Assembly: GCA_035353815.1 (NCBI GenBank)
Contig: DAOQAG010000009.1
Location: forward strand, 29,691 to 93,690
From: a bacterium
GTDB taxonomy: Bacteria > Zhuqueibacterota > Zhuqueibacteria > Residuimicrobiales > Residuimicrobiaceae
Length of the DNA stretch: 64,000 bases
Reading direction: 5' to 3'
The number at the start of each line of letters is the position of its first letter. The stretch's first letter is position 1. Position numbers and translations under genes: made by a program. Of the stretch, positions 2,241 through 48,541 are shown one piece after another. Below the pieces are notes generated by a model that was not told the DNA's origin, made no database searches, and saw only the letters and a list, made by a program, of their open reading frames with translations.

Positions 2241-2565
2241 GAAATACTCCTTCTCGTTTTGCCGGGTCCTTTTTGGCGAGGGCCAACGGCGAATTCCGGA
2301 TGAATCCCCTGCTGTTGCCGCCTGAACTTCCCGTCTGACAGCGGTACAACCGCGGGCCGGGGCTGGGTCGTCCAGGCCGATGGGTGGCGGCTGCTGTCAG
2401 GCCGTGCGAACTCCTACCATGACTCGCGATTCCGTTCACTGCGCTACCCGCAGTGACTCATGATCCTCACCTCCTTCAGCTTGATTCTGTCCATGATCTG
2501 GATTTGACGCCCCATCTGGTTTTCACACCGTCTGATGCCGTCCGGGGTCAAGGACGGCCGTCTGT

Positions 2566-5463: not shown

Positions 5464-5696
5464 CGACGCCTCCAACGGGGGTAAAAGGAGTGAACCCGAG
5501 TGCATTATTTCAGTTCCCCTTTTTTTCGCATGCATGTTACAATTTCCTCCCCTTCTTTGCATGTTCGAGCGTTCAAATCTTCGGTCTGCAGGTAAAAAAT
5601 CGAGCACAAACCGGCCGGGTCTTCGGGCCTGTCGCGAAAAACAGGCCCAAAGACAAACCGCCCGGCTGCAGGGAACCCTCCCTCTCCAGGAGCGGT

Positions 5697-25056: not shown

Positions 25057-25147
25057 GGTCTGCACATCCCTTAATTCAAGTGTGATACCGATTTTGCCCG
25101 GCAACGGCCAGTCGCCGTCAATCCCCCTACATGCCTTGAATATCCCT

Positions 25148-26725
25148 CTATTCAAGGGTGATACCGCTACATCGGCCCGACTGCAGGAGCGGCGCCGATG
25201 CGCCGCCGCGGATTTTGAGTCCGGTGAACGCGGCACCGGCGACGTTATGGAGCACCATCGGCCACACCGCACCGGCGGCATCCAGCATGAGCGCGCTGCC
25301 CCGGATCTCCCGGCCGTCATCGCAGAGCAGGGCCGGGCGGAAATCGGGCCCGGCCGCCTTCAGGGTGAGGTTGTTCATGGTCAGCCCGGTGACGTGGCGC
25401 GCATAGAGGCCCCAGGCGGGCAGTTCGCCGAACATGGAAAATTCGGGATATTCGCCCGCCTCCTCCGGTACCGCCTCGAGCCTGGAAAGGGGCAGGCAGG
25501 CCAGCCCCTTGTTGGCGTGCCCCGGCGCGGTGATTTGAATATCCTCGAGCACCAGGTTTTCGATAGCCCGTCCGGGCAGGCCGGCGATGACGGCGGGGAA
25601 GGAGTTGTGAAAAAAGCTCGTCGGGGGACCGGGCAGATCGTAGCCGCGGTCAGGCGCGTCAAAGGGGACCTGAACCTCCATATCGCTGATCCTGACGTTG
25701 CGGAGGAAACCGGTCGAGTCGCCCGAGCGCTGCCCCAGCCGCAGGAAAAAGGCATTGCCGGTATTCCGGGCCCGGATGTGCCGGACGATGATGTTTTCGA
25801 TCCGGCCGCCATCCACCGTCTCGATGGCGATGGCCGAGCGATAGGTGTCGATCACCCGGATGTTTTCCACCGTGATGTTCCTGAACCCCCCCGTCGAGGC
25901 GGTACCGAATTTCACAGCGCTGGCGCTGCTGCGCACCGTGCAGTCGGCAATATAAATACTGTCGTTACAGGCCCCGGTGCGGTGGGATTTCAGACAAATG
26001 CCGTCGTCGGCCGAGTTGACATCGCACCCGGTGATACGCACATTGCGGCAGTCATCGATGTCGATGCCGTCGTTATTCCAGAAGGCTCTGCTGATGACGC
26101 GGAGATGCTCGAGGCGCAGGTTGCGGCAGAGGGAGTAGGTCTGGACCCAGCAGGAGGAGTTCCGCAGGGTGATGTCGCGCACCAGGACATCGCTGCAGCC
26201 GGTAAAATGGATCAGCTGCGGCCGCATCGATTCGCTCGGGCGTTTGCGTCGCTGGTTATAATTGGGATCGACGCGCGCACCACAGTGATGCAGACTGTCG
26301 GCATTGAGGGCCAGGGCCTGCCCCTGGCCGTCGATGGTGCCCGCGCCGGTGATGGCGATTCCTGCGGCATGGTCGGCGAGGATCAGGGCGTAATGGAGAT
26401 CGATCTTGCGATAGAGAAAGGGATCGGTGCTGCCGAGCACAGTCCCGCCGCGTTCGATGTGCAGGGTGACGCCGCTTTTCAGCTGGATGGTGCCGGAGAG
26501 AAACCGGCCGCGGGGGATAACGACCATGCCACCGCCTGCGGCCGCGGCGGAGTCGATAGCCGCCTGCAGTGCTGCCGTGCACAGGGTGAGGCCATCGCCG
26601 CGGGCGCCAAAGGCCTCCACGGGAAATCGCCGGCGCTCCTCCTTCGGGGCGGGAGCGGCGAGGGCCGGGAGGAGCGCGGCCAGAAGGAACAGGACCAGAA
26701 GGCACGCACGGCGAGGTCGGGTCAT
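25148..26725 (-). CDS. GH28-family glycoside hydrolase (polygalacturonase/rhamnogalacturonase-like beta-helix)
   Basis: ATG at 26725, one nt after the TAG of the upstream GH92 (TAGcATG). Signal peptide. FGARGDG, WNNDGIDIDDC, SADDGICLKS, AVKFGTAS, and parallel beta-helix periodicity. Confidence 0.8.
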   Translation of the reverse strand: MTRPRRACLLVLFLLAALLPALAAPAPKEERRRFPVEAFGARGDGLTLCTAALQAAIDSAAAAGGGMVVIPRGRFLSGTIQLKSGVTLHIERGGTVLGSTDPFLYRKIDLHYALILADHAAGIAITGAGTIDGQGQALALNADSLHHCGARVDPNYNQRRKRPSESMRPQLIHFTGCSDVLVRDITLRNSSCWVQTYSLCRNLRLEHLRVISRAFWNNDGIDIDDCRNVRITGCDVNSADDGICLKSHRTGACNDSIYIADCTVRSSASAVKFGTASTGGFRNITVENIRVIDTYRSAIAIETVDGGRIENIIVRHIRARNTGNAFFLRLGQRSGDSTGFLRNVRISDMEVQVPFDAPDRGYDLPGPPTSFFHNSFPAVIAGLPGRAIENLVLEDIQITAPGHANKGLACLPLSRLEAVPEEAGEYPEFSMFGELPAWGLYARHVTGLTMNNLTLKAAGPDFRPALLCDDGREIRGSALMLDAAGAVWPMVLHNVAGAAFTGLKIRGGASAPLLQSGRCSGITLE

Positions 26726-26726
26726 G

Positions 26727-29027
26727 CTAGCGGCCCTCACGCATGGCCGAGAGCGAATAGGGGGCATCGGCAGGGTCTGTGCCGCGCTGGAAATTGGGCT
26801 GTGCACTCATGGTGAAATCGATGCGGCCGCCCTGAATGATCTCCTCGTGGCGGAGATAATTGCGCGACAGGGATTTGCCGTTGAGCGCGGCGGACTCGAT
26901 GTAGACATGGTCGGGACGGTTGTTCCGCGCGGTGATCACCAGTGTTTTTCCATTCTCCAGATGGACGGTCATGCGCTCGAACAGCGGCGATCCCAGGGCG
27001 TATTCTCCGGTACCGGGGCAGACCGGATAAAACCCCATGGCCGAGAGGACATACCAGGCGGAGGTCTGGCCGTTATCCTCATCGCCGCAGAGCCCGTCGG
27101 GATCGGGGGTGTAGAGCAGATTCATCACCTCGCGCACATGCTGCTGCGCCTTCCAGGGGGCGCCGGCCCAGTCGTAGAGATAGATGGCATGCTGGATGGG
27201 CTGATTGCCGTGGGCATATTGTCCCATGCCGGCGATGACCATTTCGGTGATCTCGTGGATCTGCCGGCCGTAATAGGAGCAATCGAAGGTCGGCGGGACC
27301 GAAAAAACCGAATCGAGTTTGGCGACGAACGGCGCCCGTCCGCCCATGAGGTCGATCAGCCCCTGGGGATCGTGAAAGACCGACCAGGTGTAGTGCCAGG
27401 CGCAGCCCTCGGTGAAGGCATCGCCCCACTTGTCGGGGTGAAAGGGGATCTGGAACGAGCCGTTGCGGAGCCGGCCGCGCATGAAACGGGTGGCGGGATC
27501 GAAGAGATTGCGATAATTCAGGGCGCGCTGGTGGAAGCGTGCGATTTCATCGGCAGGCCGCACCAGGGCGCGGGCGAGCTGCATGATGGTGAAATCGTCG
27601 TAGCTGTACTCCAGCGTCCGGGCGACATTTTCGTTGACGCCGACGTCGTAGGGGATATAGCCGAGTTCATTGTAATAGTTCACGCCGAAGCGGCCGACCG
27701 AGCGCAGGGGTCCCTCCTGCGCAGAATTCTTGAAGATGGCCTTATAAAGAGTCGCGATATCGTAGCCACGGATGCCCTTGAGCCAGACGTCGGCGATGAT
27801 CGCCGCCGAGTTGGAGCCGATCATACAATTACGGTGGCCAGGACTGGCCCACTCCGGCAGCCAGCCGCTCTCCTCAAAGGTATGGACCAGGCCCTCCATG
27901 ACCTGGGCGACCAGCCCGGGCTGCATGATGGTCAGCAGCGGAAAGGCGGCCCGGAAGGTATCCCAGAAGCCGTTGTCGGTGTAGAGATAACCCGGCAGGA
28001 CGGCGCCGTTATAGGGACTGTAATGGACGACCCGCCCGTCCCGGTCGTATTCGAAAAAGCGCCGCGGGAAGAGCATGGTACGGTAAAGAGCGGTGTAAAA
28101 GGTACGCTGTTGCGCCTCGGTTCCACCGCTGACGGCGATCCGCCCCAGTCCCTTGTTCCAGACGGCCCGGGCCTTGGCCAGGGTTTGATCGAAGGAATCG
28201 CCGCCCACTTCGCGGGCGAGATTGAGCTCCGCCTGTTCCGGGCTGATGAAGGAGGAGGCCACGCGCAGATGGACGACCTGGCCGGCGCGGCTCTTGAAGC
28301 GCAGCAGGGCACCGACATGTTCGCCCTCCAGCTCGAGGCGGTCGGGGAAGAGCTGATCACCCGACCAGGTGGCCGCGGCAAGGGGCTCGACGTCGAAATA
28401 GATCACAAAGTACGAATGGAAATTGGCCGGAACGCCCCCTTCGTTATTGCGGCAGTAGCCGACGATCTTTTTCTCCGCCGGGATGATCTTGACGTACGAG
28501 CCCATATGAAAGGCGTCGATCAGCAGCGCTGCGCTGTCGGATTGGGGATAGCGAATCCTGAACTGGGCGCAGCGCTCGGTCGGGGTGATCTCGGTCCAGA
28601 GGTCATAGTCGCCCAGATAGACCTGGTAATAATAGGGCCGGGCGGTTTCGCGCTTGTGCGTGAACCACGAGGCGCGCTCCTCCTCGCCGAGGCGGAGGCG
28701 GCCCGTCTGCGGCAGGATGGCAAAGGCTCCGTAATCGCCGATCCACGGAGAGGGTTGATGCGTCTGTTTGAAGCCGACGATCCTGGCCGCGTCATAGGTG
28801 TATTGCCAGCCATCGCCCATCCGGCCGGTCTGCGGCGTCCAGAAATTCATGCCCCAGGGCAGGGCGATGGCCGGATAGGTGTTGCCGGTGGAAAGCTGCG
28901 GCGAAGAGTCGCTGCCCACCAGGGGATTGACCAGATCGGCATAGCCGGCATCCTGTGGATCGATCTCCTTGCTGCCGGCCACAGCTGCACCCAGCAGCAA
29001 GGCCAGGATGATCAGATGGTGCTTCAT
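26727..29027 (-). CDS. GH92 alpha-mannosidase (third paralog)
   Basis: ATG at 29027 with AAGGAG 6 nt upstream. Signal peptide MKHHLIILALLLGAAVAG. VNPLVGSD, PWGMNFWTPQT, GNQPIQHAIYLYDW, GDEDNGQTSAWYVLSAMGFYPVCPG. Confidence 0.9.
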   Translation of the reverse strand: MKHHLIILALLLGAAVAGSKEIDPQDAGYADLVNPLVGSDSSPQLSTGNTYPAIALPWGMNFWTPQTGRMGDGWQYTYDAARIVGFKQTHQPSPWIGDYGAFAILPQTGRLRLGEEERASWFTHKRETARPYYYQVYLGDYDLWTEITPTERCAQFRIRYPQSDSAALLIDAFHMGSYVKIIPAEKKIVGYCRNNEGGVPANFHSYFVIYFDVEPLAAATWSGDQLFPDRLELEGEHVGALLRFKSRAGQVVHLRVASSFISPEQAELNLAREVGGDSFDQTLAKARAVWNKGLGRIAVSGGTEAQQRTFYTALYRTMLFPRRFFEYDRDGRVVHYSPYNGAVLPGYLYTDNGFWDTFRAAFPLLTIMQPGLVAQVMEGLVHTFEESGWLPEWASPGHRNCMIGSNSAAIIADVWLKGIRGYDIATLYKAIFKNSAQEGPLRSVGRFGVNYYNELGYIPYDVGVNENVARTLEYSYDDFTIMQLARALVRPADEIARFHQRALNYRNLFDPATRFMRGRLRNGSFQIPFHPDKWGDAFTEGCAWHYTWSVFHDPQGLIDLMGGRAPFVAKLDSVFSVPPTFDCSYYGRQIHEITEMVIAGMGQYAHGNQPIQHAIYLYDWAGAPWKAQQHVREVMNLLYTPDPDGLCGDEDNGQTSAWYVLSAMGFYPVCPGTGEYALGSPLFERMTVHLENGKTLVITARNNRPDHVYIESAALNGKSLSRNYLRHEEIIQGGRIDFTMSAQPNFQRGTDPADAPYSLSAMREGR

Positions 29028-29058
29028 GCTCCACTCCTTGGCTACAAGTCCGCACATC

Positions 29059-29316
29059 TCATTTTTTTCGCCATGCCGCCGCGGCGATCCAGCGCAGGCT
29101 GTGAAAGAGCAGGCGCAGCGCCGCCGCGATCAGATAGAGTACCAGCGCCAGGGCCAGAACGAATGGCAGCTGCGTGACCAGCTCGCCCCAACCCGCCTGG
29201 TATTTGACGATGGCATAGCCGTTGGCCAGCAGGGCGATCCCCAGGGAGATGATGCTGTACCTGATCTCCCGCGTGATCGCCGCGCCGGTGATGGTGATAT
29301 CCCTGATCTTAAACAT
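29059..29316 (-). CDS. 85-aa two-TM membrane protein, unknown function, translationally coupled to the upstream oxidoreductase
   Basis: The ATG at 29314-29316 overlaps the last codons and TAA of the Gfo/Idh/MocA gene (ATGTTTAA, 8-nt overlap). Sequence is MFKIRDITITGAAITREIRYSIISLGIALLANGYAIVKYQAGWGELVTQLPFVLALALVLYLIAAALRLLFHSLRWIAAAAWRKK. It has two clear hydrophobic spans and positive charges at both termini. No family recognised. Confidence 0.55.
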   Translation of the reverse strand: MFKIRDITITGAAITREIRYSIISLGIALLANGYAIVKYQAGWGELVTQLPFVLALALVLYLIAAALRLLFHSLRWIAAAAWRKK

Positions 29317-30571
29317 GATAGCGTTCTTCCAGCTTGAGCCGCGCGCCGGTCCGGGCCGCCTCTTCGGCGAGCAGCGACCATACCGTGGCATAATAGGCCT
29401 GCCGGGTCAGCTCCTCGGGAGCCTGGCCGGCGCGGATATAGCCGACGAAGGCCTCCAGCTGCAACCGGGTCTCGTCCATCCGGTAGTTGCCGGTAATATA
29501 GCCGCCTTCAGAGCGGACGGCGGTCTCGGGCACCCAGCTGGCGCCACCGATGGGGATCGTGGCGAAGAGATCCTCCTCGAGATCATGGACGAGTCGGCGG
29601 ATCGCCGGCGGCGCCGGGGGCGTTTCGGCATAGATCTTGTTCACTTCCAGCTCGAGGGTGCCTCGACTGCCGAAGATCTGTTCTTCGACCCCGTAGTGCT
29701 TGTTGCTGTTGATGGAATCGTAGATGAACTGCGCATCGTCGGGATAGGTAAACAGAGCGGCTACATGATCGTAGACCTCGCGTTTTCCCTTCCAGTAGAT
29801 CAGTCCGCCGTTGGCGACGACAGAAACGGGCTGCATCCCTTTGATCCAGCTTGCCACCTGCAGTTGATGGGACATCAGCTCGGTAAAGAGGCCGGCGGAA
29901 TATTCAGTGTAGAGGCGCCAGTTGATCTTCCGTTCCAGATCCGGCCTGCCGGCTGGCACCGGCCGCCGCCAGTCGCTGTTGCGGTGCCAGTAGCCGCGGA
30001 TATGGGTAATCTGGCCGAGTTCGCCGCTGCGGATCTTTTTCATGGCATCCAGGTAGATGGGACTGAAGAGGCGCTGATGTCCCACCTGGAGAATCCGGCC
30101 GGTGCGGCGGTGCAGATCGTACATGGCCTTGCTGTCGTCGAGGGTCCGGGCCATGGATTTCTCGCAAAAGACCTGTTGGCCGGCCTGGAGCGCGTCGAGC
30201 GTGACCGGCGCATGGACATGCAGCGGTGTGGCGACGACAACCCCGTCCAGATCCGTCCGCTCCAGCAGCCGGCGGTAATCGCGATAACCCGCCGCCTTGC
30301 CCGCCGTCAGCTCGAGGGCGCGCTGATAGTTCGGCTCATAATTATCGCAGATCGCGGCAATCTCGACATTAAGCGGGAGGGCGAAGGCCTGAATATTTTG
30401 CAGCAGGGCGCTGCCGCGGTCCCCGACCCCGATGATCCCGAGACGCACGCGCTCCAGAGCGGAGGGCGCGGCGGCCTTGCCGCTGAAAACCTTGAGCCAG
30501 GGTGCCGACGCCAGCATCAGGCCCGAGCCGGCCCCGGTCATGATCCCCTTCATGAATTCTCTTCGCTTCAT
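29309..30571 (-). CDS. Tat-exported Gfo/Idh/MocA-family NAD(P)-dependent oxidoreductase
   Basis: Twin-arginine signal MKRREFMKGIMTGAGSGLMLASA. Rossmann motif LGIIGVGDRGS. EKSMA (EKP-like) motif. Length 420 aa. Start is 9 nt after the ApbE stop. Confidence 0.85.
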   Translation of the reverse strand: MKRREFMKGIMTGAGSGLMLASAPWLKVFSGKAAAPSALERVRLGIIGVGDRGSALLQNIQAFALPLNVEIAAICDNYEPNYQRALELTAGKAAGYRDYRRLLERTDLDGVVVATPLHVHAPVTLDALQAGQQVFCEKSMARTLDDSKAMYDLHRRTGRILQVGHQRLFSPIYLDAMKKIRSGELGQITHIRGYWHRNSDWRRPVPAGRPDLERKINWRLYTEYSAGLFTELMSHQLQVASWIKGMQPVSVVANGGLIYWKGKREVYDHVAALFTYPDDAQFIYDSINSNKHYGVEEQIFGSRGTLELEVNKIYAETPPAPPAIRRLVHDLEEDLFATIPIGGASWVPETAVRSEGGYITGNYRMDETRLQLEAFVGYIRAGQAPEELTRQAYYATVWSLLAEEAARTGARLKLEERYHV

Positions 30572-30580
30572 CGTCTCTGG

Positions 30581-31459
30581 TCACACCTCCACGCTTGCAG
30601 GTACAGGCGTCACGGTCGCCCGGGTGCCGCGGTACGAGATTCGCACCACCTCCACCCTCTCCTCCAGCTGGTCCAGAACAGCGCCGATCCTGTTCTCGTC
30701 GAGGACCAGAAAGGCCGTCGAGAGGATTTCAGCTTGCAGCGGCGAATTGCCGATGACACACGCAATCCCGGTTCCGGTGACCGGCGTTCCAGTGCAGGGA
30801 TCGATGACATGCGCCCGCTGCTCCAGCCGGCCATCATCCTCCACTCGATAGTTGCTGGAAGACGAGAGCGCCTGGTCGCAAAGGGCAAAGGAGCAGGCCG
30901 GGCGCTCCGGATGATAGAGATCCCGGATCCCGACCGGCCAGGCCGCGCCGTGCGGATGTGTGCCTTTGACCAGGATCGAGCTTTCGCCGAAACTGATGAA
31001 GGCGTGGGCGACGGGGGCCGCGCCGAGGAGCGGCCGGATCCGCTCGAGGGCATACCCCTTGCCGAATCCGCCCAGATCGAGGCGAATCCCGGCACGGGCA
31101 AAGGCGATGCTCCGTTTTTCCCGGTCGAGAACGATCTCGTGCAGATGCGAGGCGGCCGGGCCTGCGCCACCTTGACCAAGCGTGATATCGAAAGCTCCGC
31201 CGGTCAGCTCCGCATAGCACAAACAGGTATCCAGAATCGCAAAGAGCTCGTCATCGAGGGCGACGCCGCCCCGATGGGCGCTCCGGTTGATCCGGCTGAT
31301 GTCGCTGCCGGGCTGAAAGCGGCTCAAGCGGGACTCGACCCGGTCGACCTCGGCGCGGATCCGGCCGAAGAGCCGCTCGCACAGTTCCGCATCCGCGTGC
31401 GGCAGCACCACGTTGAGGCGGCTGCCCATCGCATGGCAGCTGTTATGATAAACGTGCAT
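30581..31459 (-). CDS. apbE: ApbE-family FAD:protein FMN transferase, apparently without signal peptide
   Basis: ATG at 31459 with GGGGGGAGGG upstream. ApbE-like motifs AMGSRLNVVL, SDISRINR, GGAFDIT, DLGGFGKGYALE, HVIDPCTG. An in-frame TGA at 31505-31507 limits any N-terminal extension to MLGRKAAASRGEG, which has no hydrophobic h-region or lipobox. Confidence 0.8.
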   Translation of the reverse strand: MHVYHNSCHAMGSRLNVVLPHADAELCERLFGRIRAEVDRVESRLSRFQPGSDISRINRSAHRGGVALDDELFAILDTCLCYAELTGGAFDITLGQGGAGPAASHLHEIVLDREKRSIAFARAGIRLDLGGFGKGYALERIRPLLGAAPVAHAFISFGESSILVKGTHPHGAAWPVGIRDLYHPERPACSFALCDQALSSSSNYRVEDDGRLEQRAHVIDPCTGTPVTGTGIACVIGNSPLQAEILSTAFLVLDENRIGAVLDQLEERVEVVRISYRGTRATVTPVPASVEV

Positions 31460-31577
31460 GCCCTCCCCCCTGCTCGCCGCCGCCTTCCGGCCAAGCATCC
31501 GGCCTCAGCCGAGCCGAGCCGATCCAGAGTGGCAGCAGACCGCCACCGCGGCCTGTTTGCGTCCAGTCCGGCATCGC

Positions 31578-34424
31578 TCAGGAGGCGACAGGCGTGATGT
31601 TCAACGTGCCGCGCTGGCCCGGCTCAACCGGGATCAGCAGGCTGAGGGTGCCCCGGGCCAACTCCCGGCACTCCAGGGGCTGCCCGTTCCAGGTGGCCCG
31701 ATAGTGGCGCCCGGGATCGAGGCAGGCGACCACGGCGGTCGTACGCTTCCGGCCGTAAAATTTCAGAGTGGCTGTATAGGAGCGGTTGTCCGCGCCGAAG
31801 GCCTGGCTCTCCACCCAGCCGTCGAGGCCGCAGGTGAAGGTACCGGGGCGGAAATAGGCGCTGTACCAGAGCAGCACCGGCGTCGACAATCCGCCGAATT
31901 CATGCCACCCGGCGCCGCGTCCGGTCTCGATGAGAAAATGCTCCATGCAGTTGTACGAATTCTCCACCTCTTTCTTCCAGAGATCCAGGCCGGTGCGGGC
32001 GATCTGAAAGGCGAAATCGGCGCGGCCGAGATCGAGCATCGTTTTCCAGAAGAACCACTGGTGTGCGATCCACACGGTGCCGTTCCAGTAGCCGTCCATG
32101 CGGTAATAGGGCGCGGACTGGTCGACGGCCGAGAGGCCGATCGGCGACCAGAGGTGCTGTGGCGACTCGAGGCGCTCGAGCAGGAGCCGCTCCTGTTCGG
32201 GCGTGCACGCGCCCGCCACCAGCGGGTAGGCGCCATCCATGCCCATATCATAATTGACCCGCTCCTCATAGCGCATCTGCTGCACGGGCCGGCCCTGGGC
32301 ATCGTGCATGACATAGGCGAAATAGCCGCTTTCCGGGTCCCAGGCGTATTTTTGCAGCGCCGCGGTCAAGCGCTTGATGTCGGCTTCGTACTGGCGTACA
32401 TCCGCCTCGAGTCCCAGCTGCCGGGCGGCCATCTCGAGGATCCGGGCGGTGCGGATGACCTGGGCCGTGGTGATCACCGGGGTCACCCCCGCTTCCAGCT
32501 TGCGGTCATGAACGTATTTCTGGGGGGGATAATCGTCCCAGCCGCCCGAGTTGTAAAAGTAATCCCAGGTCTTGAGCAGATGCGATTTCATGGCGGCGGT
32601 GGTCGAACTGCCCAGGCGGCCGGCGAGAAATTCGTGATACTGTTTGAGGCGGGGATAGAAATAGCGCAGCATCTCCATCGACTGGCTGCGCTGCCACAAT
32701 TCGAGGAAGAGGTAATGCTGCACCGGCACCGGGGTGCCATGGTGGAGAAAGGCCGATTGGGCGCCCGGGGGGGTGGTATAGGTATTGAGGCACTCGATCG
32801 CGCGCCGCTCGTCGAGCTGCAGCAGCCCCATGCCGATGAAACCCGAATCCCAGGTATAGAGGCAGTCCCACCAGCGGCCCGGGGTGTTGTGGCGGATGTA
32901 CTGGCCCTGGGTGTAGACCGGATAGACGACATTGCAGAGGGTGGTGGCGCTCATGCGCATCTGGCTGAAAAGGTAGGGATCGCCTTCGCCGGGGAAATCG
33001 AGATCGACCACGTGGGCGCGCGCACGGGCGTAGATCTCTTCGCCCCGGGCCGCCGTGGCGCTGTACTGCCGCAGCTTCATCTCGACCTCCTGGCGCGTGC
33101 CGCAGCAGACCATGCCATATAGGACGCGCCGGCTCTGCGGCGTGAGGTTGACGGGGCGCAGAAAGACATTGGTATACTCTTCGTCGCCGTCGATCGTAAA
33201 CTCGGTGGGGACGTGGTCGTTGACCATGCGTTTAAAGTAGGTATCGATGTCCCGGCCGCGCCATTCGCGCACCTGGGACATGGGGAAATCCCACGCCAGG
33301 CCGTAATAGAGGGCGGTGTCCGCATATTTGAGGAGGAGCGACTGCGGCACCGGCCCTGCCAGGCGTTCCGGCCGGGATTGCCATTTTTTTTCGCCGAAGG
33401 TCAGGCCGCCCGCCTCCGCGGCGCTGAGCAGGGCGAAGCCGTCGAGGTCGATGGCGGAGCCACCGCGGGCCAGCAGCGTCAGCTCATGGCGGCCCGGCAC
33501 CAGGGAACCGAGGGGAACCCGGCACAGCTGCATGCCAGCGCCGCCTGCGAGGGCCACCTCGCGGTCGAGGAGGCCGCCAAGATGAAAGCGGCTGCTCGAA
33601 TCGGCGGCGAGGCGATAGCGCAGGACGAGGAGGGCGTCACTCAGGGGCGTCGTGGTCGTAAAAGCATAGGTGACGTGGTCGCCGGCCTCCGCGCCAAAGC
33701 CGGCGCCGAGCGCCGTGCCGTTGACAAAACCATGGTCGCGAATCTCGCCGCGGAACTTGCCGTCGTAGCCAAGATTGTCCTGCGGCCGGGGATGGGCGAA
33801 TTCCATCTCGCGATACGGCAGGGCATCGATCCACACGCCGGAAGGCGGCAGCTGGACGGTGGCCAGGAGGATCGGCGTGTCGGGGCTGTACTCCCGGATC
33901 GAGGGGAAATGCATCGAGGCGAGGAAATGGATGGCGAGGTTCTGCTTATCACCCGTGTTGTTGACACATTCGATCCGGACCAGCCGGGCTTGAGGATCGA
34001 TCTCGGAATAGGAGATGTCGGTATAGACCCGGTCCTGCCACTCCAGTTCATGGCGGAAGCTGAAATATTCGAACTGCGGCGAGGCCTCCCAGGGGTGATA
34101 ATCGGATTCAAAAAAGACGTTCGGCAGGGCCACCTTGCGGCGGTACAGACCCGGAAAGACGCCGACGTCGAAGCGCAATCCCTGCTGGGCATCCGGGATG
34201 TGCGACAGCCCGATATATTTTTTGGTATAGGGCCCCCAGGCTGGCAGGCTGAGGTCATGGGTCTGGTTCAGGGCCGCAAAATCGGCGGCTGTCCATGAGA
34301 AGGGCGCGGCGGCGGCGCAGCTCAGGGCCGCAAAATCGGCGGCTCTCCATGAGGTGGGCACAACGGCAGCGCAGCTCAGGGCCATCATCCAGAGGAGGAG
34401 GGGGAATTTGCGTGGAGCGGGCAT
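31578..34424 (-). CDS. large (alpha/alpha)6-barrel glycoside hydrolase, GH63-like / MGH1-like (family assignment tentative)
   Basis: ATG at 34424 with AAGGA upstream. Signal or lipoprotein-like N-terminus. The C-terminal half carries clan GH-G style motifs (TWDYFYNSGGWDDYPPQ, DMGMDGAYPL, WSPIGLSAVDQSAPYYRMDGYWNGTVWIAHQWFFW). The N-terminal half looks beta-sandwich-like. Confidence 0.6.
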   Translation of the reverse strand: MPAPRKFPLLLWMMALSCAAVVPTSWRAADFAALSCAAAAPFSWTAADFAALNQTHDLSLPAWGPYTKKYIGLSHIPDAQQGLRFDVGVFPGLYRRKVALPNVFFESDYHPWEASPQFEYFSFRHELEWQDRVYTDISYSEIDPQARLVRIECVNNTGDKQNLAIHFLASMHFPSIREYSPDTPILLATVQLPPSGVWIDALPYREMEFAHPRPQDNLGYDGKFRGEIRDHGFVNGTALGAGFGAEAGDHVTYAFTTTTPLSDALLVLRYRLAADSSSRFHLGGLLDREVALAGGAGMQLCRVPLGSLVPGRHELTLLARGGSAIDLDGFALLSAAEAGGLTFGEKKWQSRPERLAGPVPQSLLLKYADTALYYGLAWDFPMSQVREWRGRDIDTYFKRMVNDHVPTEFTIDGDEEYTNVFLRPVNLTPQSRRVLYGMVCCGTRQEVEMKLRQYSATAARGEEIYARARAHVVDLDFPGEGDPYLFSQMRMSATTLCNVVYPVYTQGQYIRHNTPGRWWDCLYTWDSGFIGMGLLQLDERRAIECLNTYTTPPGAQSAFLHHGTPVPVQHYLFLELWQRSQSMEMLRYFYPRLKQYHEFLAGRLGSSTTAAMKSHLLKTWDYFYNSGGWDDYPPQKYVHDRKLEAGVTPVITTAQVIRTARILEMAARQLGLEADVRQYEADIKRLTAALQKYAWDPESGYFAYVMHDAQGRPVQQMRYEERVNYDMGMDGAYPLVAGACTPEQERLLLERLESPQHLWSPIGLSAVDQSAPYYRMDGYWNGTVWIAHQWFFWKTMLDLGRADFAFQIARTGLDLWKKEVENSYNCMEHFLIETGRGAGWHEFGGLSTPVLLWYSAYFRPGTFTCGLDGWVESQAFGADNRSYTATLKFYGRKRTTAVVACLDPGRHYRATWNGQPLECRELARGTLSLLIPVEPGQRGTLNITPVAS
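34269..34383. repeat. 54-bp tandem duplication (2.1 copies) inside the 5-prime end of the GH63-like gene
   Basis: Units 34269-34322 and 34323-34376 share 47/54 identical positions by hand count, and a third unit starts CAGGGCC at 34377. They encode ALSCAAVVPTSWRAADFA / ALSCAAAAPFSWTAADFA / AL. Confidence 0.9.
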
Positions 34425-34492: not shown

Positions 34493-36412
34493 CTAGTGCT
34501 CGGTCCGGGTCATGCTTGCGAAATGGAGGGTAAGGGCATGACCCTGATACTCGAAATGGATCTCTTCGGGCTGGCGCCGGGCGCGGACATAATCGCTTTC
34601 ATAGCGCGGATAGTTCAGGTCCCGGATCTGGCCGTCAACGCTGAATTCCCCTGCATAGGTCAAAGATAGTGTTTTTTTGCCGCAACTAAAAGTCAGTTTG
34701 TGCTTCTGCCAGCTCACCTCCGCTGCATGCATGCGGCGGCAGAATTCACTGAAGGGTTCCTCGGCTGCGCGGCCCATGACGCAGATCCAGTAGCATTCGC
34801 GGCCCGCCTGGATCCACTCGACCAGGCCGTTTTGACGCAGCGGCACAGCCGTAAAAAAGGCCAGCCAGGCTTGCCCGTGGCGGGCTAGCAGCAGGTTGCC
34901 CTCCTGCCGCACCTCCTCGAAGCGCGCGGCGGGCAGATAGAGATGGGTATAGGGAATCACGGGCCGCTGCAGCAGTCCGGACCGTTCCGGCAGCAGATAA
35001 ATCGACAGATTGATATTCTCTTCCTGGACGGAATGGGGCAGGCAGCCGTTCCCCACCCATGTGCTGGGCGGCGGGATGCCTGCCGCGCTCTCCCCCGGCA
35101 GGATCTGCGGATGATTGTGAAAGAGGGCCAGGTCCGGCGCCAGGGTGGCACCGAAGATATGTTCCTGATGGCCGAAGGTGCCCGGGTGATAGGCTTGCGT
35201 CGTATAGAGGCTATAGTCGGGCGTGCGATAGGTATAGGTATTGGCCCGCAGCAGAGCGGTGCCGTTGGTCTGCGGGTTCAGGTGCCGGCTCAGGACGGGG
35301 TTAAGATGAAAGAGCCGCAGCGCAGTAAAGTTGAGCCAGCGGAACGGGTATAAAAATTCGTTGGTGAAAAGCGCATTGCGCTCGACCCAGGCCAGAGAGT
35401 TGTCAATAACCTCGGGATTGGAAAAGGCCGCCATCCCCCATTGCATCATGATCTGCCGATCCTCCGCGCCGATCAGTCCCGCCGCAGCCAGCTCATCGAG
35501 ATCCAGCCCCTGGGAGGCTTTGATGATCCGCGGCACCGGGTCCCTGCCGATCTCAAGCAGGACCTGCGGCACCCGATAGTTCTCGAGATCGAAAAAGTTG
35601 ATATCCATTCCAGTGGCCGGGCCCTGGGGGGCGGCATCCGTGAAAAGCGAGCGGGTAATCCGGCTGGTGGCTACCGCGGTGGCGGTCTTGCCATTTTCAT
35701 AGGCGCGGCCGCTGCTGGTGACGAACTGGCCCTGCCAGGATTGCGAAGCCAGGTCATAGAGGAGCAGATCAAGGATCATCCGGCTCCTGGCGACGATCTC
35801 CTGATCATTGCAGAAATCGATCAGATTGCACAGGGGGGCGATATCCTGCACATAGTAGGTATTGGAAAAGTACTCGCTGAAGCCGTAGCGCCAGCGCAGG
35901 TCGAGCCAGGCCAGAATCCGTTTTCGGGCCCGGACCATGTGTTCGCTGTCGCTGAGATCGGCATTGCTGAAAAAGGTCTGCGAATAATATTGCCCGGCCA
36001 GGTACTCCGCCGCGGCGAAGAGGATCTGGTGGTTTTCGCTCCAGAAGCACATACCGTCCTGCCCCGGTTCGTCCATCCCGTAGCGGAAGGCGGTGAGGGA
36101 ACGCTTGATCTCCGCGTGCATCGCGGGCGTGAGCAGTGCGGAGTGCGTATAGAGAATCCGCAGCAGGGACTGCAGGCGAAAATCGGCGCAGTCGTAGCGG
36201 CGGTCGATATAGTGACAGATCGCCTGGATCTCCTCCAGGCTGACCGCCTGGCCGTGATCCAGGTTCCAGAGTACCTTGTTCTCGGGAGTAGCCGCCGGAG
36301 CGGCGGGCAGGGCGGGAATGATCGGCATGCGTTCATTACGGACAAATTCGCCAAGCGTATAGCAAGAGAGAGCGACGAGCACGAGGAGCAGGATATGGCG
36401 GATTGTCTTCAT
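34493..36412 (-). CDS. uncharacterised exported protein (639 aa); possibly a polysaccharide-lyase-like toroid + beta-sandwich enzyme
   Basis: ATG at 36412. N-terminal signal/anchor MKTIRHILLLVLVALSCYTLG. Composition looks like a real protein throughout (CFWSENHQILFAAAEYLAGQYY, WRYGFSEYFSNTYYVQD, TFGHQEHIFGATL). Sits between the T9SS protein and the GH63-like gene. I cannot place the family. Confidence 0.7.
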   Translation of the reverse strand: MKTIRHILLLVLVALSCYTLGEFVRNERMPIIPALPAAPAATPENKVLWNLDHGQAVSLEEIQAICHYIDRRYDCADFRLQSLLRILYTHSALLTPAMHAEIKRSLTAFRYGMDEPGQDGMCFWSENHQILFAAAEYLAGQYYSQTFFSNADLSDSEHMVRARKRILAWLDLRWRYGFSEYFSNTYYVQDIAPLCNLIDFCNDQEIVARSRMILDLLLYDLASQSWQGQFVTSSGRAYENGKTATAVATSRITRSLFTDAAPQGPATGMDINFFDLENYRVPQVLLEIGRDPVPRIIKASQGLDLDELAAAGLIGAEDRQIMMQWGMAAFSNPEVIDNSLAWVERNALFTNEFLYPFRWLNFTALRLFHLNPVLSRHLNPQTNGTALLRANTYTYRTPDYSLYTTQAYHPGTFGHQEHIFGATLAPDLALFHNHPQILPGESAAGIPPPSTWVGNGCLPHSVQEENINLSIYLLPERSGLLQRPVIPYTHLYLPAARFEEVRQEGNLLLARHGQAWLAFFTAVPLRQNGLVEWIQAGRECYWICVMGRAAEEPFSEFCRRMHAAEVSWQKHKLTFSCGKKTLSLTYAGEFSVDGQIRDLNYPRYESDYVRARRQPEEIHFEYQGHALTLHFASMTRTEH

Positions 36413-36488
36413 GGATTCAGGATACCGTTGGTTGAGTGGCGTGCCGTCAGGGACGCGAGCGCGGCCGCGAGGTGCCACCACCGTGGAG

Positions 36489-38198: not shown

Positions 38199-38317
38199 TA
38201 CGTTTCCTCCGATGAAAGATTCTCCTACCGTAGTTTTGCAGAACAAAGAACCGCTCGCGAGACGTTCACCTCCTTGGCTTGGCAGAATGCCGCCCCGGCA
38301 TCTCCGCAGTGTACGGG

Positions 38318-41239: not shown

Positions 41240-41344
41240 CACAACTCCTTTTGTTTTTTAAGGCACGGTGCCGGGGTATTTCCGGAATGCAGCCTGTAAA
41301 TCCCAGCAGGTGGAAGCGGATACCCGTGCTGAAAGGGACCCCGC

Positions 41345-41573: not shown

Positions 41574-42851
41574 ATGAACAAGAACCACCTGAATATCCAG
41601 AAAGAGCTGGAAAAAAGCCTGTTCCAGAGCGAGGCCATACGCAACTCGCGGAACACCCAGCTTCTGTTGACCTATCTGCTGCAGTGCCAGGATAAAGGCA
41701 TCGTTCCGAAAGAGACGATGATCGCCCGCGAGGTCTTTGGCAAAGACCAGCATTTTAATCCGGGTGAAGACCCTCTGGTCCGGGTTCATATTCACAATCT
41801 GCGTAAAAAGCTGGAAGAGTATTACCGGGAGGAAGGGCGGAAAGACCGGTACCGGCTGGAGATTCCCAAGGGGCAGTATGTCATCCACATCATCGATCAG
41901 ACCGAGAGCAAGCAGATCGGTACCTGGATCCGCGCGCACACCGGATGGCTGCAGGTTTATCCCCTGTTGTTGGTGCTGATGACCTGCATCGCTTCAGGAC
42001 TGCTGATCTACGCCGTAAGCCTGCATAAGGAAGTGAAGAAATACCGCTGTGTCGATATCGATGATGCGATCTGGGGTGATTTTCTCAAGTCCCGCAACGA
42101 GACCATGATCGTCTGCGGCGATCACTTTTTCTACAATATCAACATCAACTACCAGAATCGTTCGGTCCATATCCGCGACACCTGGATCAACTCCGCGGAA
42201 GACATGAAATATCTGATCTTTCCGGACAACACCACCACCGCCCAGCCTTCCGATCAAACCTATTTTCCCTTCGGCACGGTGTGGTCGCTTCCGAGCATCG
42301 TCAAGCTGCTGAATTCTTCGCCGCGGCAGATCGTTCTGCGCAGTTCATCGCAGTTGACTCCCAATGTTATCGAAGAACAGAATGTGGTCTATATCGGCAA
42401 TATCAAATCCCTCGGGATCCTGCAGCATTACATCGAGCAGGCCCATCTCGCCTATGATATCCGCCAGCGCATCCTGTACCACTTCTCCCCCGCTGACACC
42501 CTGCGCTTCAACGCCGAAGCCAACGAGGATGTCTATCACACCGATTACGCCTTCATCATCAAGTATGAAGGTCCGCGCGGCAATGCCATCCTGATCACGG
42601 CCGGATTTTTCACCATCGGGCTCAAGGAAGCCTGCCGTTACCTCACCGAACCGGAACTCCTGCCGCAGCTCGAGCAGCTGCTCATCACCTCCTGCGGCCG
42701 TGTCCCGAAAAACTTTCTGGTGGTGCTCAAGGTTTCCGGAATCCGGCAAGCGATCATCGAATCCAGATTCGCCCTGGTCGAAGCGCTGACGCCGGTCAAC
42801 TCGCCGGCGCCGCACTCCGCCGCCAATCCGCTTCTTAGTCCAGTTCCTTGA
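41574..42851 (+). CDS. membrane-bound one-component regulator: N-terminal OmpR/CadC-type winged helix, one TM, about 270-aa extracytoplasmic domain of unknown family
   Basis: The N-terminus fits the Trans_reg_C pattern ([75 protein letters not shown]). The TM is [26 protein letters not shown]. The rest is not recognised. The upstream in-frame region is closed by TGA at 41442-41444 and has no other ATG/GTG. Visibly lower GC than its neighbours. Confidence 0.75.
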
Positions 42852-44223
42852 TCTTGATGTTTCTAAAAAAGACCTGGCAGCCATGGTCCTGGAGCAGGAT
42901 GTGGCCTTCCGCCGCTTCACCAAAGTTCGGCCAGATGGCATATTTGCTGCGGGCGACCAGGGCGCGCCACATCTGGGTGCCGCGCTGATATTCGACCTGC
43001 TTGATGCCGTTGAGATAGTGGCACACCTTCTGGCCGCGGACCACGATCCGGGCCCGGTTCCAGTCGTATTTGTTGACGCGCTTGGCGGTATTTTCGTCGG
43101 GGGCATAGAGCCGAGCCTCGGCCGGGATCAGATCGTAGAGCGAAGCGAGAGTCCGGTTGCCGGCGGTACCCAGTTTGGCATCGGGATGGAGATCATCGTC
43201 CAGGATCTGGAACTCGCAGCCGATGGCCGATCCCGCGCCCTTGTTGGTCTGGGTATCGACGAAATACTTGATGCCGCTGTTGGCCCCGGCCGTCATCCGG
43301 AAATCGGCCTCGAGCTCAAAATCGGCATATTGCTTCACCGTGACGATATCGCCGCCGTTGCGCGCCTCTTCGCCGCCGCTTTCGGCTACTATGAGCATGC
43401 CGTTCTCGATGCTCCAACCGCCTTCCGGGAAGCGGTCAAGCTTGGCGCCCCGCCAGCCGGCCGTGGTCTTGCCATCCCAAAGCAGCTGCCAGCCCTCGGC
43501 GATCTCGCGCGGTGTGAGCTGGTTGGTGAGATAACTGCTCTGCGGAATGGCGTTGGTGACCGGCGTACGCAGCGCGGCCAGATTCTCCGTCAGGATGCGA
43601 AGGTTGCGCCAGGCGATGGTCTTGCCCGCCAGGCTCGAATCGTTGCCGATGCTATGCACCTGGAGGGCGATGAAGCCGGCGGGCGTCAGGTCATCGACGA
43701 TATCGGCGGTGGGAAAGCCGTTGAGCCAGACGCGGATCGAGGTGCCAACCGCTTCGACACGAAACTGGTTCCATTCCCCTGGCTTGAAGGCCGCCTTGGC
43801 GGCGGGATTGCATTCGAGGTTGTAAAGCCAGCCGCGACGGGCTTCATCATAGAGGCCGCCGCTCCAGGCACGCGGCGAGGGATCGAGCTCGACCTGGAGA
43901 CCATGGACGCGGCCCTTTTGCACCTCCGGCAGGCTCAGACTGCGAATCTGCACCCCGGAGTTCAGTCCGGCATCGATACGGCATTCATACTCGAGAATGA
44001 AATCACCATAGAGGGTGCGGGTGGCCAGAAAGGTGTTGGGGGTATTCAGTTTGCTGATGCCGACAATGGCGCCATCGCGCACCACAAATGGCGCATCGCC
44101 ATTGAGCACCCGCCACTCCTTCAGGTTCTTGCCATTGAACAGGTTCACCCAGAGATCTTTCCCCGCCGCAGCGGAGGCCAGCGCAAGAAGAGACATGGCT
44201 ATCACCCAAAATTTGCTTCTCAT
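42835..44223 (-). CDS. secreted protein with two tandem DUF1080 (3-keto-disaccharide hydrolase-like, concanavalin-fold) domains
   Basis: Signal peptide [21 protein letters not shown]. The DUF1080 pattern occurs twice. First: [22 protein letters not shown]...[24 protein letters not shown]...IALQVH. Second: [24 protein letters not shown]...[23 protein letters not shown]...[20 protein letters not shown]. Confidence 0.85.
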
Positions 44224-44271: not shown

Positions 44272-45594
44272 TCAATCGATCGACAGCTCCCACCCCTTGG
44301 CATACTCGCGTTTGCACAAGCCCCGCGCCTTTTTATTGCCGCGGACCTGCCCGGTCGCCGGATCGAGATCGAGGGTCTCGTTCAGTTTCCAGGCGATATT
44401 CGCGAGCTGCAGGATCGTCACGCTCTTGTTGCCCTCAGCGATCGGTGAATTCAGCGGCGTCCCCTTGCGGATGGCGTCGATGAAATTACGAAAATGGATG
44501 TTGGTCAGTTCATCACGGCTGAGCAGGTCCTGAGAAGTGCTGGCCGTCGGCAGCCGAAATTGCTCGAGCAGCGTGTCATTGTGCGAATAGACCTCGTAGC
44601 TGTCGCGGTCCAGCACCACCGTGCCCTCGGTGCCATGGATCGCTGCACCACGGTCACGATTGTAATACTTCTTGCCCTGGCAGCTCAGGCCCTCCCAGGT
44701 GATCATGGCGTCGGGATATTCAAAGCTGGTGACGAGGGTATCATAAAATTCCCAGTCGTCCTTAAAATGGTAGCGGCCGCCGCTGGCGGTGACGCGCAGG
44801 GGGAGATCGACCCCCAGAGCCCAGCGGCAGATATCCACCTCATGGGTGCCGTTGTTGAGGGTTTCGCCGGTGCCCCATTGCCAGAACCAGTGCCAGTTGT
44901 AGGGGTGAATATTGTCCTTGTACGGCCGCCGCGGCGCCGGCCCCTGCCACAACTCCCAATTCAGAGAGGCGGGTACCGGCACCACCTTGCCAACGCCGAT
45001 CGATTTGCGGACATTGCTGTACCAGGCCTTGCCAAAATAGGGCCGGCCGATCAGACCCGCATGGATCCTGGCGATGATCTCCTGGCTGTGCGCCGAGGAA
45101 CGCTGCTGGTTGCCCATCTGCACCAGCTTGCCGTATTTCTTCTGCGCCGCGACAAGGAGCTCGCCTTCATGGGGATTATGGCTGCAGGGCTTTTCGACAT
45201 AAACATGTTTCCCGGCTTGCAGTCCCATGATGGCCATCGGGGCGTGCCAGTGCTCCGGGGTGGCGATGGTGATGGCATCGACATCGCGGGACTCGAGGAT
45301 ACGGCGAAAGTCCTCGACCCGGGCGGGGGCGGCGCCAGTGGCTTGCTCCGCCGCCGCGGCGAATTTATCCAGCTCCACGGCGTCGACATCGCAGACATGG
45401 GTGACCGCGGCGTTGTCGCCGAAGCGCACGCCGTCGAGATGGGCATAGGCCCGGCCGTGCAGCCCGATGATGGCAAAATTAAGGCGGTCGTTGGCCCCGA
45501 TGATCCGGCTGTAGCTTTTAGCGCTCGCTCCGAAGGCCAGGCCGGCAGCCCCCATGGCGGAAAGCTTGAGGAAATCCCTGCGTGACTGTTCCAT
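44272..45594 (-). CDS. Tat-exported Gfo/Idh/MocA-family oxidoreductase (second, divergent copy)
   Basis: Twin-arginine signal MEQSRRDFLKLSAMGAAGLAFGASA. Rossmann motif FAIIGLHGRAYAH. EKPCSHN motif. ATG at 45594 with GAGG upstream. Confidence 0.87.
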   Translation of the reverse strand: MEQSRRDFLKLSAMGAAGLAFGASAKSYSRIIGANDRLNFAIIGLHGRAYAHLDGVRFGDNAAVTHVCDVDAVELDKFAAAAEQATGAAPARVEDFRRILESRDVDAITIATPEHWHAPMAIMGLQAGKHVYVEKPCSHNPHEGELLVAAQKKYGKLVQMGNQQRSSAHSQEIIARIHAGLIGRPYFGKAWYSNVRKSIGVGKVVPVPASLNWELWQGPAPRRPYKDNIHPYNWHWFWQWGTGETLNNGTHEVDICRWALGVDLPLRVTASGGRYHFKDDWEFYDTLVTSFEYPDAMITWEGLSCQGKKYYNRDRGAAIHGTEGTVVLDRDSYEVYSHNDTLLEQFRLPTASTSQDLLSRDELTNIHFRNFIDAIRKGTPLNSPIAEGNKSVTILQLANIAWKLNETLDLDPATGQVRGNKKARGLCKREYAKGWELSID

Positions 45595-48462: not shown

Positions 48463-48541
48463 CGCCAACTCCATTCTGGGGGAAAATCGTTTACACGTGG
48501 GGCAAACAGGCAGCATTCAGGGCAAAATGGTCTAATTGGGT

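Follow-up and report, generated by a model that had tools for sequence, protein, structure and literature searches.

Covalent flavinylation by ApbE-family transferases has been surveyed almost wholly as an extracytoplasmic process, and the main census of it retained a gene cluster only when ApbE itself or a known target domain had a signal peptide (PMC8238504). Signal-less, (presumed) cytoplasmic ApbEs with a specific partner encoded nearby have also been described, namely the second ApbE of Klebsiella pneumoniae, which serves a soluble NADH:fumarate reductase, and the ApbE-fumarate reductase fusions of trypanosomatids (PMC12052999). The targets of these enzymes are not sent beyond the cytoplasm or glycosome, and each has an FMN_bind domain that bears the acceptor motif D-x-x-[S/T]-G-A-T (PMC12052999). 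Within the Gfo/Idh/MocA family of sugar dehydrogenases, the glucose-fructose oxidoreductase of Zymomonas and BT2158 of Bacteroides thetaiotaomicron bear twin-arginine translocation (Tat) signals, and export of a cofactor-loaded Gfo enzyme by the Tat system is on record (Halbig 1999, as cited in PMC8121099). The BT2157/BT2158 pair runs periplasmic 3-keto-glycoside catabolism, and its authors left unidentified the partner that re-oxidizes the tightly bound nicotinamide adenine dinucleotide (phosphate), NAD(P), of Tat-exported BT2158 (PMC8121099). In a 64,000-nucleotide stretch of contig DAOQAG010000009.1 (assembly GCA_035353815.1, Residuimicrobiaceae), hereafter the window, an ApbE homologue, a Gfo/Idh/MocA oxidoreductase (named GFO-B here) and a small protein with two predicted transmembrane helices (2-TM) form one cassette, which ties a signal-less ApbE to a Tat-signal NAD-dependent sugar dehydrogenase of the 3-keto-glycoside pathway. 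Each kind of protein is known already; the novelty lies in the pairing of a cytosolic ApbE and a Gfo enzyme exported by Tat. The literature searched contained neither an account of the cassette nor any link between ApbE and the Gfo/Idh/MocA family or the 3-keto pathway. Because of its signal-peptide filter, the census would have discarded the cassette (PMC8238504), which proves to be widespread.

An earlier note on this DNA had singled out three tightly packed genes, and the sequence bears this out: 9 nucleotides (nt) separate the ApbE stop codon from the GFO-B ATG, and GFO-B overlaps the small open reading frame (ORF) by 8 nt. The same note proposed looking for the triad in other genomes, and synteny was indeed found across several phyla. 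A genome scan with one genome per species returned GFO-B relatives in 390 species, most of them glycan degraders of the Bacteroidota, Ignavibacteriota and Balneolales, and arrangements were counted on the best 80 loci. Orthologues with 50-69% identity are abundant in Ignavibacteria, Melioribacteraceae, Bacteroidota and Balneolaceae; among the best 80 loci, cultured carriers belong to Prolixibacter, Marinilabilia, Anaerophaga, Maribellus, Roseimarinus and Saccharicrinis. Of the 72 loci with enough flanking DNA, 68 have ApbE as the gene immediately ahead of GFO-B (ApbE occurs in 75 of all 80), and at least 67 of the 80 have a small ORF behind GFO-B. When metagenomes were scanned in reverse with the ApbE clade, 53 of the 62 informative loci had GFO-B as the next gene downstream. 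This synteny spans Ignavibacteriota, Bacteroidota and Balneolales, together with single metagenome-assembled genomes (MAGs) of Chlorobiota and Neomarinimicrobiota. Three contigs picked arbitrarily all carried ApbE, GFO-B and an ORF of 77-89 amino acids (aa), amid glycan genes that differed from contig to contig (GH106/AXE1/rhamnose catabolism or 3-keto-disaccharide hydrolase/GMC dehydrogenase). Since synteny holds in both search directions, the adjacency is a selected cross-phylum feature, and the cassette very probably constitutes a functional unit.

The ApbE homologue scores 151.9 bits against PF02424 (cut-off 25.6) over profile positions 1-265 of 266, and a profile of its clade matches all solved ApbE, Ftp and FmnB structures over the whole domain (Protein Data Bank search, E 1e-21 to 4e-37). 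Its AlphaFold2 (AF2) model, with a predicted local distance difference test (pLDDT) score of 93, shows a complete ApbE fold whose first beta-strand begins at residue 4; Foldseek gives template-modelling scores of 0.74-0.81 against Ftp of T. pallidum, ApbE of V. cholerae and FmnB of L. monocytogenes. With these enzymes the protein shares the motifs G-x-G-K-G-Y, S-x-S-x-N, H-[VI]-I-[DN]-P and x-L-S-T-A. Within the clade, to whose members the window ApbE is at most 49% identical, K134 (of G-x-G-K-G-Y), S199, N203, S247 and T248 are invariant, and S201 occurs in 117 of 118 sequences. Measured against the V. cholerae triad S241/H257/D285 and the Lys and Thr that bind Mg and FAD, the window protein retains the Ser, His217, Lys134 and Ser247-Thr248, and the Asp is replaced by Glu; this Glu244 stands in all 118 clade members in place of the catalytic or Mg-binding Asp of the published Asp-Ser-His triad. 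His217, the proposed general base, is present in the window ApbE and in 55 of 75 sequences in all (74 loci plus the window). The fold is kept, as is the larger part of the catalytic set, whose presence the earlier note had marked for checking. Unlike the known ApbE/Ftp/FmnB enzymes, the window ApbE has no signal peptide or lipobox, its clade carries Glu for the triad Asp and G-E-S for G-G-[DN], the His gives way to Asn or Ser in one subclade, and the neighbouring genes encode no canonical acceptor. In contrast to the targets in K. pneumoniae and trypanosomatids, the partner here, GFO-B, bears a Tat signal, belongs to the Gfo/Idh/MocA family and has neither an FMN_bind domain nor the motif.

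A strong Shine-Dalgarno sequence, GGGGGAGGG, precedes the ApbE ATG at 31459, and an alternative in-frame ATG at 31498 would add 13 non-hydrophobic residues, MLGRKAAASRGEG. The absence of a signal peptide and lipobox had been deduced earlier from an in-frame TGA two codons ahead of the first ATG. The absence itself stands, but this TGA belongs to ATG 31498, and ATG 31459 lies 13 codons further in. Because the extension is not hydrophobic and a stop codon sits just upstream, neither start yields a signal peptide or lipobox. Among 69 relatives, most have an in-frame stop at most 20 codons upstream of the conserved YHNSFFAMGT, and the few longer upstream frames that were read contain no obvious hydrophobic signal segment. 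As its sequences read, the ApbE clade is systematically signal-less and is hence predicted to be cytoplasmic.

GFO-B is, judged from its sequence and modelled fold, a bona fide NAD-dependent sugar dehydrogenase of the Gfo/Idh/MocA family with a conserved twin-arginine signal. It matches the GFO_IDH_MocA N-terminal and C3/C domains (PF01408, E 6e-19; PF22725, E 7e-17), and its orthologues share as invariant features the Rossmann motif GVGDRG, C75-D76, E137-K138 and H235. The AF2 model (pLDDT 83) has a normal Gfo fold, for which the top Foldseek matches are the NAD-dependent sugar dehydrogenases levoglucosan dehydrogenase, DgpA and scyllo-inositol dehydrogenase (E ~1e-20). The earlier reading of a clear twin-arginine signal is corroborated by the family, which keeps the RREFLK motif (consensus RREFLKK, a short h-region and ALAS-MPW, with R4 and F6 at least 90% conserved); in the window, K-R-R-E-F-M-K is followed by GIMTGAGSGLMLASA. 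Just past the predicted cleavage site (ALA/S-M-P-W-L-K, cut at the slash), P24 and W25 are invariant in the family, and this P-W may plausibly serve as a docking peptide.

With Zymomonas glucose-fructose oxidoreductase and BT2158, GFO-B shares the twin-arginine signal, the Rossmann plus alpha/beta Gfo fold, a presumed export with tightly bound NAD(P) and a periplasmic sugar-oxidation context that includes a DUF1080 3-keto-disaccharide hydrolase. It differs from them in falling far below the cut-off of the BT2158 family (75.5 bits over residues 3-221 only against NCBIfam NF058561, equivalog cut-off 750) and in an additional conserved loop that spans residues 339-356. It is also almost always accompanied by ApbE and a 2-TM partner, both of which Zymomonas oxidoreductase and BT2158 lack. 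Nor does GFO-B belong, by sequence, to the NAD-dependent glycosidases of glycoside hydrolase family 109 (GH109): only 6t2b was matched (E 4e-11), over the N-terminal Rossmann residues 25-234 and below many dehydrogenases.

For the small ORF, a word-indexed homologue search yielded one near-identical protein, and its family surfaced with an exhaustive HMMER search (~106 short representatives of 75-90 aa). The consensus reads MKDIxIxGxxIxRE, a first transmembrane helix, N.YAI..Y.T.W.EL.[ST]Q, a second helix and a basic tail. Lys plus Arg residues average 4.1 at the N-terminus, 0.9 in the loop and 3.7 at the C-terminus, so the protein is predicted to have its two termini in the cytoplasm and its W-x-E-L-x-[S/T]-Q loop in the periplasm. 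The overlap of the reading frames couples the small protein translationally to GFO-B, and from this coupling and the predicted topology it is plausible that the 2-TM protein links GFO-B to the membrane. A likeness to NuoK (E 0.002; 18 bits against a cut-off of 101) was rejected as a hydrophobic-helix artefact.

The wider setting of the cassette is best seen in its relatives. In at least 37 of the 80 loci, which makes it the commonest wider order, the genes run tandem-DUF1080 3-keto-disaccharide hydrolase, a second Tat-signal Gfo/Idh/MocA enzyme (GFO-A), ApbE, GFO-B and small protein; the hydrolase is usually the first gene of the unit and GFO-A usually stands directly upstream of ApbE. GFO-A is distantly BT2158-like (NCBIfam BT_2158_fam, E 5e-44, 150.7 bits, under the 750-bit cut-off). 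In the window this five-gene unit is split, with the hydrolase and GFO-A located 13 kb from the cassette, just downstream of a GH78 rhamnosidase (45715-48516, minus strand). As its usual partners are a 3-keto-disaccharide hydrolase and a BT2158-like Tat-GFO, the cassette belongs to oxidative, 3-keto-type glycan breakdown. The earlier note had described it as inserted in a GH63/GH92 operon. Pfam confirms the position between a GH63-like gene and GH92, GH28 and GH92 genes, but these flanking genes are incidental, and relatives carry the cassette in many different glycan loci, their commonest neighbours being the hydrolase and the BT2158-like enzyme. A functional parallel is offered by the LacABC-type glucoside 3-dehydrogenases, which consist of an FAD-dependent GMC enzyme (FAD, flavin adenine dinucleotide), a Tat-signal small subunit and a cytochrome c. 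They are likewise periplasmic, assembled in the cytoplasm and Tat-exported, and they pass electrons to the respiratory chain, as is proposed for GFO-B; a gene pair of this type (GMC dehydrogenase plus small subunit) even lies near the cassette in one Balneolaceae locus (L003). In contrast to LacABC, GFO-B is an NAD-dependent Gfo rather than an FAD-dependent GMC enzyme, no cytochrome is involved, and the membrane partner is a cofactor-less 2-TM protein.

The best explanation of the cassette is a periplasmic, membrane-associated NAD-dependent sugar or glycoside dehydrogenase with a dedicated cytoplasmic maturation enzyme. What this maturation would consist of is suggested by a loop in GFO-B. The earlier note had found no canonical acceptor motif in the oxidoreductase, which is correct, but it overlooked the near-motif G-G-A-S at residues 342-345, which agrees with the ApbE motif in its G-A-[S/T] core. 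The loop, P-I-G-G-A-[S/T]-W-[VI]-P-E (residues 340-349), has invariant G343 and W346 and carries Ser (78) or Thr (42) at position 345 in 120 orthologues; of the 80 genome loci, 78 cover the loop, and all of these keep [S/T]-W and 68 keep G-G-A-[S/T]. Residues 344-352 form an unstructured loop in the AF2 model (pLDDT <50). The loop is clade-specific, with no sequence counterpart in solved Gfo structures or in GFO-A, the other Tat-GFO of the window. Mutagenesis of the ApbE motif has shown that its Asp is dispensable and that the G and A tolerate substitution (PMC12052999). On these sequence grounds the G-G-A-[S/T]-W loop is a candidate non-canonical flavinylation acceptor, and it is doubtful that Ser345 in particular is the site.

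In the best-supported reading, which is quite possible if short of probable, the cytoplasmic ApbE flavinylates GFO-B before Tat export. ApbE would take FAD in the cytoplasm and attach flavin mononucleotide (FMN) to folded, NAD-loaded GFO-B, most likely at the invariant Ser/Thr345 in the flexible G-G-A-[S/T]-W loop, and the Tat system would then export the doubly loaded enzyme. In the periplasm, GFO-B would dock on the small subunit, perhaps through its (S/M)PWLK mature N-terminus and the W-x-E-L-x-[S/T]-Q loop, and the tethered FMN would pass electrons between the NAD(H) bound to the enzyme and the quinone pool of the membrane. The outcome would be an electron outlet or a cofactor reset for the 3-keto-glycoside pathway. 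This reading is supported by the synteny, the signal-less ApbE clade, its largely kept catalytic residues and the candidate acceptor loop, and further by the precedent of a cytosolic ApbE acting on K. pneumoniae fumarate reductase and by the Tat export of cofactor-loaded Gfo. In its full form, it would define a new class of ApbE substrate and a new type of periplasmic dehydrogenase: a Tat-exported Gfo/Idh/MocA enzyme that receives covalent flavin while still in the cytoplasm, on a non-canonical G-G-A-[S/T]-W loop, and carries both NAD(P) and FMN across the membrane, with a 2-TM partner that couples periplasmic glycoside oxidation to the quinone pool. That all of these parts hold together is rather unlikely.

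Several observations weigh against flavin transfer to GFO-B. The canonical motif D-x-x-[S/T]-G-A-[S/T] is absent from GFO-B (120 orthologues), from GFO-A (50), from the small protein and from all six frames of the window; among all ORFs of the 80 loci it occurs in one unrelated ORF only and in none of the conserved neighbours. The G-A ahead of the loop Ser/Thr is replaced by NS, SS, DS or GS in ~10 loci, most of which retain ApbE, and the variants G-N-S-S-W and T-N-S-S-W are also found beside ApbE. For the T-[KN]-S-S-W type, the loss of the G-G-A motif shows no clean correlation with the loss of ApbE, as two loci of this type have no adjacent ApbE (L067, L078) and one has (L070). In the Bacteroidota MAG with the closest GFO-B relative (L005, 69%), GFO-B and the small ORF are present and the G-G-A-S-W loop is intact, with no ApbE within 4 kb upstream of GFO-B. 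At position 217 of ApbE, an Ignavibacteria subclade that makes up 18 of the 75 sequences has Asn or Ser, and across the full table of loci the ApbE active site and the GFO-B loop showed no independent covariation. To our knowledge, Gfo-type enzymes have no flavin pocket, and the S/T-W-x-P-E loop would equally fit a sugar-binding substrate lid. Finally, neither His nor Cys is conserved in the small-protein family, which leaves no evident place for a cofactor; the protein would accordingly be an anchor or adaptor and not carry a cofactor itself.

Two details of position 217 (codon 30809-30811) belong here. Throughout the Ignavibacteria/Melioribacter lineage the sequence reads K-x-N-V-I-N-P, with the cassette and the GFO-B loop Ser still kept. 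A covariation of the ApbE His/Asn with the loop Ser/Thr appeared suggestive in a partial table and was discarded, as the Asn type represents one Ignavibacteria lineage and His pairs equally with Ser and Thr.

Several of these observations would suit an ApbE-like protein that transfers no flavin at all. It would serve the Tat substrate in the cytoplasm as a dedicated chaperone or by proofreading its cofactor, much as redox-enzyme maturation proteins do, or as a nucleotide- or FAD-handling enzyme, and the GFO-B loop would be a substrate lid. The missing canonical motif, the loss of the catalytic His in part of the clade together with the change from Asp to Glu throughout, and the variable G-A part of the loop in loci that retain ApbE are all in line with such a role, and dedicated chaperones are typically encoded beside their own Tat substrates. 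Nevertheless, the explanation seems unlikely, since the whole FAD/Mg site is kept (K134, the Ser cluster and E244-x-x-S-T), the confidently modelled fold is close to that of active transferases, and a purely binding role would need no strict conservation of the active site. We also know of no ApbE-family member that acts as a chaperone. Export of the transferase itself is a second way to account for the gene order: the signal-less ApbE would ride out on folded GFO-B and act in the periplasm on GFO-B, on the loop of the small protein with its invariant Ser/Thr48 or on another envelope protein. Tat hitch-hiking of this kind is established for other complexes, such as a GMC dehydrogenase with a Tat-signal small subunit, the gene pair found in L003. 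The cassette genes are tightly coupled with a Tat signal on one product only, an invariant Ser/Thr lies in the predicted periplasmic loop of the small protein, and the known bacterial ApbEs act mostly outside the cytoplasm (PMC8238504, PMC12052999). However, the FAD donor is cytoplasmic and nothing obvious would be gained by exporting the transferase. ApbE also evolves much faster than GFO-B (at most 49% against 69% identity), which is unusual for a stoichiometric partner, and a minority of clade members adjoin genes for cytoplasmic, Tat-less GFO-type proteins (L128), so that hitch-hiking is quite unlikely.

The two remaining explanations fare considerably worse. In the window, the cytoplasmic N-terminal tail of the small protein, D-I-T-I-T-G-A-A-I-T, resembles D-x-x-[S/T]-G-A-[S/T] and is predicted to lie on the same side of the membrane as ApbE, which would make the 2-TM protein itself the flavinylated target; the T-G-A-A in this tail had escaped the earlier note. 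The family alignment largely refutes this highly improbable idea: the window protein has Ala where the acceptor would stand, the tail has no conserved Ser/Thr, homologues begin with MKDIVITKKQ or MKDIVVSEKT, and [ST]GA[ST] appears in 1 of 106 members. The D-I-T-I-T-G-A-A stretch was accordingly rejected as a chance resemblance. The earlier note had also allowed that ApbE might be the general transferase of the cell for Nqr/Rnf clients and its position coincidental. For this the adjacency is far too conserved, since the order recurs in the genome and metagenome counts given above, across phyla and between unrelated flanks. In addition, flavinylation of Nqr/Rnf needs an export signal, of which this clade has none, and Pfam and NCBIfam scans found no Nqr, Rnf or FMN_bind genes among those of the window. 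Coincidence is refuted by the synteny counts and is barely credible. Of the three outcomes that the earlier note said would refute its idea, none came about, given the synteny in relatives, the largely retained catalytic residues and an adjacency too conserved for chance.

If GFO-B is indeed flavinylated by the cytoplasmic ApbE, this would show where the electrons of Tat-exported NAD-dependent glycoside dehydrogenases go, the question left open for BT2158 (PMC8121099). The recognition motif of ApbE would then be broader than described, which matters for flavin-tagging applications. Without flavinylation, the cassette would still represent an uncharacterized three-component periplasmic dehydrogenase system.

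Departures from the usual arrangement are informative about the range of the ApbE clade, which may serve other GFO-type partners too. Clade members not followed by GFO-B occur in L129 and in the soda-lake metagenome loci L103, L125 and L128; there, the order is LacI, cytoplasmic Tat-less GFO, ApbE, cupin and an ORF of ~450 aa, or ApbE precedes a lipoprotein with an NPGHFHA motif. Two of the loci without an adjacent ApbE, L067 and L078, adjoin hexuronate genes (a short-chain dehydrogenase/reductase, UxuA-like and UxaC-like). ApbE is frameshifted into three pieces in a Melioribacteraceae MAG (L001, 5117-5999) and lies in two pieces in a Balneolaceae MAG and a Logan assembly (L003/L004, 5116-5989); these split genes could be assembly errors or real pseudogenization.

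Coordinates of the cassette, its sequence features and related or neighbouring genes in the 64-kb window
Feature	Position	Strand	Description
ApbE homologue	30581..31459	-	292 aa; Pfam PF02424, E 3e-44
GFO-B	29309..30571	-	420 aa; N-terminus MKRREFMKG
Twin-arginine signal region of GFO-B	30503..30571	-	MKRREFMKGIMTGAGSGLMLASA, then conserved P-W; family consensus
GFO-B loop P340-I-G-G-A-S345-W-V-P-E349	29525..29554	-	Ser345 codon 29537-29539; clade alignment
Small 2-TM protein	29059..29316	-	85 aa; two hydrophobic helices; no Pfam family
GFO-A, second Tat-signal Gfo/Idh/MocA	44272..45594	-	Pfam GFO_IDH_MocA, C2 domain, TAT_signal
Tandem-DUF1080 3-keto-disaccharide hydrolase-family protein	42835..44223	-	Pfam PF06439, two stretches, E 2e-85
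GH63-like/MGH1-like glycoside hydrolase, upstream neighbour	31578..34424	-	Pfam PF22422, E 1.5e-29; PF03200, E 5e-10
GH92 alpha-mannosidase-family gene, downstream neighbour	26727..29057	-	Pfam PF07971, E 6e-174
GH28, downstream	~25148-26806		
Second GH92, downstream	22852-25320		

According to library scans of its proteins, the whole window is a single large glycan-utilization region. Beyond the GH92, GH28 and GH92 genes, one more GH92 gene lies downstream of the cassette, and the GH92 gene at 26727-29057 probably has its true start at ATG 29027, which from the sequence comes with a Shine-Dalgarno sequence and a signal peptide. The region further contains GH2, GH3, GH78, apiosidase-like, RhaA, ROK kinase and major facilitator superfamily genes, along with two TonB-dependent receptors, two beta-helix proteins with tails for the type IX secretion system (T9SS) and a hybrid two-component regulator. 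The receptors and beta-helix proteins form two alike pairs (648-5700 and 36582-41242, minus strand), each a CarboxypepD_reg-type TonB-dependent receptor followed by a T9SS-sorted beta-helix protein, and no SusD-like gene was noted. The regulator, at 5697-9848, is a hybrid two-component system (HTCS) protein with AraC output. In a search of sequencing runs, the locus was present in DNA metagenomes only (activated sludge and sediment), and no RNA runs carried it.

Long antisense ORFs, among them two opposite the cassette and its GH92 neighbour (29222-31597 and 26427-29177, plus strand; 791 and 916 aa), were dismissed as shadow artefacts of the 61% G+C content, their G+C at third codon positions being below that of the real minus-strand genes. 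Three ORFs inside the glycan locus have no Pfam or NCBIfam match: 34493-36481 (minus strand, 662 aa), 48657-50411 (minus strand, 584 aa) and 59149-60057 (plus strand, 302 aa). In the L-rhamnose isomerase ORF at 14283-16103 (minus strand), the RhaA domain covers residues 191-605 only, so the listed start codon probably lies ~190 codons too far upstream.

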